Of a stretch of DNA of 64,000 nt, positions 39,601 to 42,600 are shown in pieces. Numbering within the stretch: position 1 is the first letter of the stretch; the number at the start of each line of letters is the position of its first letter. A program made the position numbers. The stretch lies in the IMG/VR virus record IMGVR_UViG_2718218360_000008. One strand, 5' to 3'. Source of the DNA: a virus. Lineage: Duplodnaviria > Heunggongvirae > Uroviricota > Caudoviricetes.

Positions 39601-42600
39601 AAATGCGGAGGCACTGAACAGCAAGATCAGGCTGCTGAGAATAAAAGCCAGGGGATACCGCAACTGGGAGCGCTTTAAGCAGGGAGTGATGTTCCACTAT
39701 GGGAAACTGAATATGGCGTTCTAAGTCTTCCCACCATGATCGGGGAAGACCCATTTATGTACAGGTGTTATTTTTATCTGTGTATATCCAGTGTCAATTT
39801 ATGATATAGGCTATGGGGCATGTACGGGACATTTTTTATCGGCGAAATTCGTCGAAGTTCGTCGACATGGTAAACGAATCATCTATCCAACCCTTGAAAA
39901 ACGGCGCTCCTGGACGATCTTTGTCGATTTTTAAAAATGTTGCGTCACGCAGTTAAAGTGGCGGGCATCCTCTTCAAGGATGGTGATCCTCAACCGCACC
40001 CATTTAGGATGCGACTATTGTGGTAGAACAATGTAAACCATAATTAATCTGCGTGCGGATACATGCTTCATAGATAGGATATTCTGGTTTGGGTTGTGAA
40101 TGCGTTGGTCATCGAGTGGACAATAAGGTAAGAGGAGTAACTCCTGCAAAACAAAAAAGAGTTCAACAAAATCAATCAGTTAAAAACACGAGAGATCTGT
40201 ATAAAAAAGCATCGTAAATTCTGTATTTTTCCTTTAAATATAATATGTTATTGAGTTTTGTAAAATCTACCAGTGTGGTACATGGATATCGATACCACGG
40301 CTAAGTATAAATCTGGTGTTACTACCGTGAAAGACTCGGTACGACTGGATCCGTGGGTGTTTATGTTCTCCGCAGGATATCGTTTTTAATTTTCTCTGCA
40401 AAACCTCTGCAAAACCTCTGCAAAACCCCTCTGCAAAACTGGTCATCAAATGACCAGTTTTTTCCATTCCTTACCGCGTGCGTCGTTGTAAATATCGGTC
40501 ATTTTTTGATTCGAATGGCCTAGCAAAATTTTGGTATCAACCCCCTGCTCTCTGAACAATCGCTCTGATAAAGATCTCTGCTCATGGAAAGAGGGTGGGG
40601 TGCCATTAGCACGCCAGTTGTAATCCACAGAATCCCGGGCTTTTTTAAATGCAACGGTTAATGTTGCTGGCTTAACCATCCCGCCGCGCTTAGCTGTCCC
40701 TTTCGCGTGATGGTGGTGCAATAGCCACGGACTAAGAACGCAATCGCGGCAGGATGACACCACATCATCTAGGGTGAGATTTAATTTATCGCAACGCAGA
40801 GCCAGAGGGATGGCAATCCGGGTTCCTGTTTTTTGCTGTTCGACATGAAGATAACCATCCCGGATATCCGAAAATTGCATTTTGCAAATATCTGAAAGGC
40901 GCTGGCCTGTCATCAGTGCCAGCAGCATACCGCGCTGTAAAAAGTAACCATCCTTTTCCGCTGCGTTATAAATCATCATCCACTCATCAAAAGTCAGTCG
41001 CTGTCTTGATATCCGCACCTGCGGTTTTTTTGCAGATTCTGCAGGGTTAAAGCCTGGCGGGACATCGCCCGTTTGCTGAGCTTCCCGGAAAACATCGATC
41101 AGTACTTTCCTGAAAATTTGTCCCATTCTGTTATGTCCTCTGGCCTTGTACTCTTCCAGTACTGATACCACATCTTTTACGGTTATGGCATCTAACGGTC
41201 TGGTGCCAAAACGTTCATCAAATACCCTGAGAGGGGCCGCTTTCTGTTTCAGCGTGTTGAGTTTGATCTCGCCGTTTTCATATCTTTCCTGTTGAATTTT
41301 TCTGTAATTATTCAGAAAAATGGTAACGGTTGATGAACCGCCGGTATCACTAATAATTTTCTCCTGCAGACTGAGCATTTGTTCCATTTGCTGCCGGGCA
41401 AGACGGCTGTTCGCTTCTGCTGCAATAGTTTCTGCCAGTTTCTGGTCAATACTGCCGAGACCGTGATTTTTGCCTGTTATGGGATGCCTGTAACGCCAGT
41501 AAACTTTGTTATTTCTTTTGTCAAAATACGGAGATAATCCCGGAACATCGGTTTTATATTTTCGCGGGCGCGCCATCTTCCAGTATCCTCTTCAAAGCAG
41601 GGTGATCTGTGGCGATCACCTCCGGCTTGTTTACCATTCCGACAAAGCGAGCTTGCGGATCCACTCGCCAGCGTCTTCCAACTTTTTTGGGGAGAGGAAA
41701 TATCATTCCGGCTTTAGCGTATTTACTTAACGTACTCGGAGTAGGGACCGGTTCACTGAATTCCTCTTTTGCCCACTCAGTGAGCAGAATAAGTCTTGCC
41801 ATGAGCGTCGTTCGCTAATCATGGTCGCCGCCACTATAGCTGGTGGGCAACGACCGGGGTTGAACATTAAAAATCAGCCTGATTCGGGATCAGTTTTTGC
41901 CAGATAGCTGAAACGTATTTTGCCTGGTAACGAGCGTCATCCAGCGCATTGTGGCGCTCACCTTCGAATGGGATAGCAGTTCTGGCATCGAAGTCTATGG
42001 CTTTCCCCAGCTCAACGATTGTGCGTACATCGCGATCGTTGTAGTAACGCCACGGGCAGGGGATCCCCTGCCGTTCGTATGAACGGCGCAAAATCGTGTT
42101 GTCGAAGTTGGCTCCATTTCCCCAGACCTGAACAAAAAATTCACCGGAGTTTTCGTCGATAAATTCCCGCAATTGTAACAGTGCATCATCTAACGGGATT
42201 TCATCGGTCATAATGGCAGATTGCGCTTCGCGTGATTGCTTAAGCCACCATTTAATGGTGTCCCGATCAATGACTCCGCCAGCAGTTTCCAGATCGATAG
42301 TCTTACTAAATTCCGGTCCCATATCTCCGGTTTGCGGATCGAAAAATATTGCACCTATTGAGATAATCGGGGCATCAGGATTTTTTCCCATGGTTTCAAG
42401 GTCGATCATTAGATGGTCACACGTCCTGCTGGTGGATGTGATAATGCGATGACCGTTCACCGTAATTAAGGGATCTGCCGTCTCGCCAGTTTCACTATCG
42501 CTGGCGTGGTCCTGAGCGCTGCCAGCATTCTCCTTGTGTGGATGTTCAGCGCCTTCCATTTTCTCCGAATCGTCTTCCTGAACTTCAACCAGGTTCTTGT

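Follow-up and report, generated by a model that had tools for sequence, protein, structure and literature searches.

A repeat array and a palindrome beside the integrase gene of tandem ompW prophages in Escherichia coli O157:H7: candidate arm-type integrase-binding sites and a putative terminator

The attachment region between tandem ompW prophages

The window analyzed here, that is, the whole stretch of 64,000 nucleotides listed as IMG/VR record IMGVR_UViG_2718218360_000008, is DNA of Escherichia coli O157:H7. The region shares 99.4% identity with E. coli O157:H7 strain YB14-1 and matches the published "PPompW" prophages, lambda-like elements that are inserted in the ompW gene and carry intE/xisE, a 121-bp attachment (att) sequence and a 21-bp sequence denoted 'attB-in-PP_1'. 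Between a phage-borne 3' end of ompW and the integrase gene int, an 11-bp unit, CTCTGCAAAAC, occurs four times (40394-40404, 40405-40415, 40416-40426 and, behind a CC dinucleotide at 40427-40428, 40429-40439), and a palindrome follows (Table 1). The first-pass annotation of this DNA had described three tandem units and a fourth one after a CC spacer, which is exactly how the sequence reads, and had proposed that attL and arm-type binding sites of the integrase (Int) are located here. The comparisons presented below indicate that the repeats are very probably arm-type Int-binding sites and lead to a different assignment of the att site itself.

Table 1. Features of the attachment region, with positions in the window
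Feature	Position	Strand	Basis or remark
GTCACGCAGTTAAAGTGGCGG, one mismatch from the published 21-bp 'attB-in-PP_1'	39945..39965	+	similarity to the right end of PPompW begins here
Single CTGCAAAAC 9-mer in the P arm, array orientation; proposed P1-like arm-type site	40144..40152	.	
IHF consensus WATCAANNNNTTR (AATCAATCAGTTA) matched without mismatch; P-arm site on one side, core on the other	40170..40182	+	consensus match
121-bp att homology: phage-borne surrogate ompW 3' end, stop TAA at 40387-40389	40271..40391	+	PPompW repeat_region annotation, alignment, translation
Putative core (crossover), inverted repeat GTGGTA-N12-TACCAC	40275..40298	.	in the only long phage/host-identical block left of the divergent middle
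Four 11-bp units CTCTGCAAAAC; proposed P'-arm arm-type Int-binding sites	40394..40439	.	sequence, conservation in Int homologues
Conserved 9-mers CTGCAAAAC (= GTTTTGCAG on the int-sense strand)	40396-40404, 40407-40415, 40418-40426, 40431-40439		
Perfect palindrome AAAACTGGTCAT-CAA-ATGACCAGTTTT, 12-bp arms, A run and T run flanking on each strand	40435..40461	.	fold energies
int, 376-aa lambda-family tyrosine integrase with N-terminal arm-binding domain	40446..41576	-	open reading frame, domain search, alignment
T6 tract after the hairpin, ompW-sense strand; on the other strand, Lys-Lys codons of the Int C-terminus	40458..40463	+	
xis, 82-aa excisionase (PF07825), overlaps the int start	41554..41802	-	

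Tandem Repeats Finder reports the array with a period of 11, 4.0 copies and a score of 74. All four perfect matches to CTCTGCAAAAC in the window fall within the 46 bp of the array; a single, unrelated match with one mismatch is present in the window, for which the chance expectation is ~1.3 matches per whole window. Four matches within 46 bp are not a chance occurrence. The array starts 5 bp past the TAA stop of the ompW 3' end that the phage carries within the 121-bp att sequence, and the CTGCAAAAC motif is absent from the 121-bp core region. Two open reading frames that run across the array (66 aa, 40267-40467, minus strand; 56 aa, 40353-40523, plus strand) were judged to be spurious, the region being accounted for by the ompW end, the array and int.

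The segment 39952-40270 corresponds to the right end of PPompW, namely, the P arm located ahead of the far 121-bp copy, and there is no continuation of ompW to the left of 40271. In the closest complete genome, the order is full-length ompW and int; prophage A; P arm, 121-bp sequence, repeats and int; prophage B; and finally an ompW 3' fragment and yciE, and the two Int proteins of this double lysogen are identical. The closest relative is a tandem double lysogen at ompW, a configuration that has also been reported previously (PMC8112680), and, by analogy with this relative, the genome from which the window derives probably has the same overall arrangement. Given that the sequence to the left of the core is the P arm of the second tandem prophage, the site is an uninterrupted attP-like unit: judged by its flanks, the segment 39966-40463 is a complete P-core-P' unit between tandem prophages and not an attL junction of host and phage DNA. 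The prophage boundary recognized in the first-pass annotation is real, being int-proximal and adjacent to the 121-bp att sequence, but its designation as attL does not hold. The internal 121-bp copy has been called a potential attB ('attB-in-PP_3') by Nakamura et al. (PMC8112680); the element is the same as the PPompW att site of that study, and, because it is flanked here by both P and P' arms, 'attB-in-PP_3' is a full attP-like site. This status of the internal copy bears on the question of how phages that have the same int, but are described as integrated at other 'attB-in-PP' sites, came to be there.

Given that the host sequence located downstream of ompW, at the other prophage end, is devoid of the repeats and that the junction is present in only ~1719 of 5426 complete E. 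coli genomes, the repeats are assigned to phage rather than host DNA, and the initially raised possibility that they belong to a conserved host gene unrelated to integration is not borne out.

The 121-bp sequence, annotated in the PPompW records as "duplication due to insertion", has been defined as the att sequence by Nakamura et al. (2021, PMC8112680), who confirmed it on excised circles whose attP junction they sequenced. As anticipated in the first-pass annotation, a matching core is found at the other prophage end, in the form of a second 121-bp copy in the PPompW records. The two copies differ: the int-proximal, phage-borne copy matches host ompW at 96 of the 121 positions, and a 28-bp block at the left end of the sequence (40271-40298) is identical in the phage and host copies. 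Given that, in the lysogen, the divergent middle of the 121 bp is of the phage type at the int end (the attL copy) and of the host type at the far end (the attR copy), the crossover must lie in or at this 28-bp block. The inverted repeat GTGGTA-N12-TACCAC within the block is a plausible candidate for the core. Three different left flanks among the compared loci all break at 40271, the left edge of the 121-bp stretch, 4 bp to the left of the inverted repeat.

In one of the compared loci, from E. albertii NBRC 107761 (L005 3795-4200), Int is 100% identical and three candidate arm sites are present, and the sequence to the left of the 121 bp is neither ompW nor P arm; the left break coincides with the left border of the 28-bp block. 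Insertion at a secondary site or rearrangement at the core may account for this locus. A different C-terminal stretch is encoded by the phage-borne ompW 3' end (window 40264-40389; L003 1-209 versus 43883-44001), with TTAKYKSGVTTVKDSVRL where the host has TTANYKLGGAQQHDSVRL. OmpW expressed in a single lysogen would be expected to be a chimera, changed between the last two beta-strands, and a surface protein may in this way undergo a form of lysogenic conversion.

Candidate arm-type sites of the ompW integrase

The Int protein contains the lambda Arm-DNA-binding domain (PF09003; residues 2-71, E = 7e-22) and the tyrosine recombinase domain (PF00589; residues 193-367, E = 1e-16); a match to PF22022 is weak (24.3 bits versus the curated cut-off of 27). 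It aligns over its full length (residues 14-375) with the lambda Int structures 5J0N and 1Z1B (E = 1e-55; 36% identity), with R226, K249, H331, R334, H354 and Y363 placed opposite lambda R212, K235, H308, R311, H333 and Y342, respectively. These six R-K-H-R-H-Y catalytic residues are invariant across seven family members.

The conservation of the repeats was assessed in two sets of loci. The first set consists of six loci chosen by Int protein similarity alone, one genome per species, at 65-100% identity: E. albertii, two Kluyvera (K. georgiana and a metagenome-assembled genome), Raoultella, Enterobacter bugandensis and an Enterobacteriaceae isolate. All six loci contain GTTTTGCAG three times, with offsets of 0, 13 and 24 when read along the int-sense strand. 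The triplet follows the int stop in four loci (E. albertii, the Kluyvera metagenome-assembled genome, Raoultella and the Enterobacteriaceae isolate), and the Enterobacteriaceae isolate (L009) combines the same triplet with a different insertion target. In K. georgiana and E. bugandensis, a 1.5-kb insertion parts int from the triplet, which stays at the ompW end; in the element e14, the equivalent repeats adjoin icd, 3 kb from intE. Given that the triplet stays at the ompW end, or at icd, when int is 1.5-3 kb off, the repeats travel with the core and not with the 3' end of int. The extra DNA of ~1.5 kb (L006 3626-5112; L010 3625-5113) sits between the int stop and a remnant of the hairpin together with the arm sites. 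In one Kluyvera locus (L007), int has a premature stop six codons before its end.

The second set was obtained by a motif scan of IMG/VR with a pattern of two adjacent 9-mers, such that neither the third site nor the 13 + 11 bp spacing was required; 80 loci were returned and analyzed. An Int homologue (48-100% identity) precedes the motif in 43 of the 80 loci, with 10-40 bp between its end and the motif. These 43 Int-linked loci preserve the third site together with the exact 13 + 11 bp spacing, the bases between the 9-mers vary, and the downstream flanks fall into at least 14 unrelated classes as judged by eye. The other ~37 matches have no Int homologue in the available DNA and were treated as unrelated; many of them are 12-bp-period repeats in unrelated contigs. 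An Int-based search of IMG/VR (80 loci) yielded mostly near-identical E. coli prophage predictions, most of which end at the int stop, and added no new downstream sequence. Among the Ints associated with GTTTTGCAG, the N-terminal domain is in most cases 58-69% identical to that of the window Int, and the identity of the core-binding domain in the same set goes down to 35-50%. The arm sites are kept with the Int lineage whatever the chromosomal target, and other motifs are found in related lineages.

Wherever the P arm is retained, the locus contains one further perfect 9-mer, in the same orientation, 277-292 bp away. In the window, this is the isolated P-arm copy (Table 1), which is also present in four of the other loci (L024, L046, L050 and L077) and in the right end of PPompW. 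The center of this 9-mer is 138.5 bp from the center of the putative core (about -138), the same distance as that of the annotated P1 footprint of lambda, which is centered at -138.5; the chance expectation for a perfect 9-mer in an arm of ~300 bp, both strands considered, is ~0.005. The only match to the IHF consensus with at most one mismatch in 39966-40470 is the one at 40170-40182; accordingly, no such match is found between the core and the P' sites. An inverted P2-like candidate, GTTTTGTAA at ~40258-40266, has two mismatches, lies only ~25 bp from the core center and was not counted, and no clear inverted P2-like site was found.

This layout can be compared with that of lambda attP, where three sites, P'1, P'2 and P'3, follow one another in tandem at +54 to +84 and P'3 overlaps the int stop. 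The two share a homologous Int, three tandem direct repeats that are spaced by about one helical turn and located immediately 3' of the int stop, and one site on the opposite arm at ~-138 bp, with the IHF consensus here falling between that site and the core. They differ in the motif, which is GTTTTGCAG here and ATAGTGACTK (the lambda consensus on the int-sense strand) in lambda; in the location of the P' sites, centered at +113 to +149 here, with ~100 bp of surrogate ompW coding sequence separating them from the core; and in the presence here of a terminator-like hairpin between int and the sites as well as of a polymorphic site number (2-5).

Similar arrangements are found in elements that target other genes. 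Phage 4A7, a phage of the phage-21 type (Int 50.8% identical; icd target), has three copies of GTTTTGGGGAA just past the int stop, followed by an icd fragment, and one more copy ~130 bp beyond this fragment. In e14 (IntE 49.5% identical), three copies of GTTATCAAAA are located just past the icd stop and one more ~110 bp before icdC (L180 1420-1500, 16280-16300). Phage vB_EcoS-640R1 (Int 44% identical, adjoining potC) carries three GTTTTGG(G/A)GA-type repeats after int. The icd elements, with Ints that are 50-51% identical to the window Int, resemble the ompW prophages in the possession of a surrogate target 3' end and of three tandem repeats plus one on the opposite side; they differ in the target, icd instead of ompW, and, in e14, in the separation of int from the sites. 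The 3' half of the motif is GGGGAA in the phage-21 type, ATAAC in e14 and CAGAG here, whereas the TTTTG half is common to all three. As read from these sequences, the plan of three sites plus one recurs in lambda, in the phage-21 type and in e14, each time with a lineage-specific motif. In K-12, the annotated small RNA C0293 is encoded ~200 bp further into e14.

Because Int possesses an Arm-DNA-binding domain, the 9-mer and its spacing are conserved, a copy of the 9-mer is present on the opposite arm, and the layout parallels those of lambda, the phage-21 type and e14, we consider it very probable that the four 11-bp repeats are P'-arm arm-type Int-binding sites of the PPompW attachment site, in agreement with the expectation formulated in the first-pass annotation. 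Several points weigh against this interpretation. The sites are ~55 bp further from the core than those of lambda. Their number ranges from two to five in natural E. coli, the exact number not being strictly constrained. The conservation observed in IMG/VR is partly imposed by the search pattern, and many carriers are close relatives, with PPompW prophages often defective, so that some of the conservation may reflect recent common descent. Finally, the binding of Int to the repeats is a prediction for which we found no published description of the sites: the repeats are not described in the literature found on the arm-type sites of PPompW, phage 21 and e14, a search outside of which the classical accounts of phage 21 and e14 fall, and the term 'arm-type' is absent from PMC8112680.

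A distinctly improbable alternative is that the repeats bind Xis, or another accessory protein, rather than Int. Proteins of this kind, too, recognize direct repeats at a spacing of about one helical turn. According to the abstract on phage 186 Apl, a tandem spacing of 11-13 bp suits recombination directionality factors generally. Moreover, the xis gene is present at the locus, and Int and Xis are co-inherited, so that conservation together with Int cannot tell Int sites from Xis sites. In lambda, however, the Xis sites are confined to the P arm, between P2 and the core, whereas the triplet in the ompW prophages is found directly 3' of int, where lambda has P'1-P'3, and the isolated copy on the other arm, at the P1 position, conforms to the pattern of arm-type Int sites.

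With respect to copy number, the usual allele has three sites, the listed E. coli matches typically spanning 93 bp of the record for a 104-bp query. The class with at least three perfect tandem units, to which the window belongs and which includes the four- and five-copy alleles, comprises only 24 genomes. In ERL06-2442 (L181 4501-4569), five sites are present, in the order of three tandem sites, CC, one site, CC and one site, with both the 11-bp and the 13-bp unit duplicated; an IMG/VR prophage (L059) has two sites and an int that is frameshifted in an A run. What had been noted as a CC spacer is the conserved 13-bp spacing of the int-proximal site. On this comparison, the ancestral state, which is also the usual one, has three sites at 13 + 11 bp, and the window carries a rare allele in which slippage has added a fourth unit among those spaced by 11 bp. 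The range of copy numbers (2 in L059, 3 in most genomes, 4 in the window and 5 in ERL06-2442) would also fit a functionless, slippage-prone minisatellite (variable number tandem repeat) between ompW and int. We regard this explanation as very unlikely: the 9-mer, the number of three and the 13 + 11 spacing persist down to 48% Int identity, amid unrelated flanks and variable spacers, and neither the extra copy 250 bp away on the opposite arm nor the parallel arrays in the phage-21 type, e14 and lambda are expected of a neutral minisatellite.

A terminator-like palindrome between int and the array

The palindrome located directly after the array was recognized in the first-pass annotation, with a CAAA loop and shorter arms. 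The palindrome is real, but the loop is CAA, and the arms are 12 bp in length. The inner palindrome, CTGGTCAT-CAA-ATGACCAG, occupies 40439-40457, with a loop of 3 nt, and the 12-bp arms take in part of the last repeat unit on one side and of the T run on the other. The overlap with the int stop stands, TGA at 40446-40448 being within the hairpin loop and the 3' arm, as does the T6 run, which ends one base beyond the limit given for it initially.

Folded as RNA, the hairpin has an energy of -14.4 kcal/mol on the plus strand (z = -6.2) and -14.9 kcal/mol on the minus strand (z = -4.1), and none of the 200 shuffled sequences was as good. It lies between int and the array and, in single lysogens, between the convergent ompW and int genes, which are 45-69 bp apart. 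On the int-sense side, the hairpin comes after the int stop, and the TTTTG next to it belongs to the first arm-site motif (GTTTTG). Given that the native sequence downstream of the host ompW is displaced to the far prophage end, the phage hairpin with its T6 tract would be the first terminator met by ompW transcripts in single lysogens. The palindrome is probably a bidirectional intrinsic terminator that serves int (minus strand) and the reconstituted ompW (plus strand) and is separate from att; thus, it does sit beside att, as noted at the outset, but is better explained as a terminator than as a feature of the att site. It resembles the bidirectional intrinsic terminators of convergent genes in being a perfect hairpin that is preceded by an A tract and followed by a T tract on either strand; unlike these, it encompasses the int stop, and its T tract on the int side is the first arm-site motif, with only four T.

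The same short T tract also counts against the assignment of terminator function, given that, on the minus strand, the stem is followed by only four T and then G. In addition, the hairpin was not listed by a scan for terminator and promoter consensus sequences, our guess being that the T run is absorbed into the stem by its A-T extension. Conservation of the hairpin is limited to Int relatives with ~65% identity or more. Among ten hairpin variants, 95% of the cells are paired, and two pairs show double changes; this covariation of the stem is not above that of shuffle controls, and selection at the RNA level is not demonstrated. In three relatives that do not integrate in ompW (L009, L013 and L056), pairing is kept via G-U on the int-sense strand only, with two double changes, and in three ompW-integrating relatives, A-C mismatches on the int-sense strand would be G-U pairs on the ompW-sense strand. 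A search of Rfam yielded no known RNA family, the sole match, NRON, being spurious and sub-threshold.

That the repeats and the hairpin jointly form an RNA-level stability or processing element of the int mRNA 3' untranslated region, akin to lambda sib, is hardly credible: the int-sense array can form a second helix beside the hairpin (96 nt, -26.8 kcal/mol, z = -4.1), and the G-U pairing confined to the int-sense strand in L009, L013 and L056 would fit such an element, but the array remains beside the att core even where int is 1.5-3 kb away, the hairpin is lost below ~65% Int identity while the triplet is kept, no Rfam family is matched, and the stem covariation is not significant.

Proposed function of the site and neighboring DNA

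Under the proposed mechanism, PPompW, a lambda-like phage that inserts in the 3' end of ompW, would employ Int as a heterobivalent tyrosine recombinase. By homology to lambda, the C-terminal domains of Int would bind and cut the core near 40275-40298, and the N-terminal domain would bind GTTTTGCAG, which is repeated at one-turn spacing beside int and present once more in the P arm. With IHF-type bends at the consensus match, Int would be able to span arms and core and thereby yield a recombination complex. The extra 11-bp unit in the window would have arisen by replication slippage, and the palindrome would end the int transcript and, in single lysogens, the ompW transcript as well. The features, their positions and their conservation are observed, and Int binding, the use of IHF, the exact crossover point and termination are predicted from them. 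It is conceivable, albeit unlikely, that the array is a slippage-driven rheostat, whereby gain or loss of 11- or 13-bp units would shift the efficiency of Int assembly on attL and attP and the frequency of excision; if this is the case, prophage stability or loss would differ between otherwise identical strains. On the same unlikely reading, the first arm site would double as the U tract of the int terminator, and Int occupancy could feed back on the ends of the int and ompW transcripts.

The design of the site is the ordinary lambda plan; in the literature searched, neither the specific motif nor the layout seems to have been described. They provide a testable arm-site motif (GTTTTGCAG three times at 13 + 11 bp, and once at -138) for the Int of about one third of the complete E. 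coli genomes. The carriers of this integrase include O157:H7 and other Shiga-toxin-producing strains, in which the ompW prophages carry type III effector genes and act as landing pads for Shiga toxin (Stx) phages (PMC8112680). The shared architecture and the TTTTG half-site across the ompW, icd (phage 21, e14) and potC lineages could aid the automatic prediction of att sites and prophage ends.

To the left of 39945, the similarity to PPompW gives way to different prophage DNA with insertion sequence (IS) fragments. The right end of Stx2a phages (AP012536, NC_049941) shares 99% identity with the segment 39000-39950, in which transposase fragments are found, and this suggests a past integration or recombination event at the 39945-39965 site. 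A 10-bp tandem repeat, TCGTCGAAAT (2.7 copies, 39839-39865), is present in this degraded region to the left of att. At the end of the left prophage, a DUF4765 gene (35231-38618) is split into open reading frames of 290 and 846 aa, in line with strain YB14-1, where a frameshifted pseudogene is annotated.

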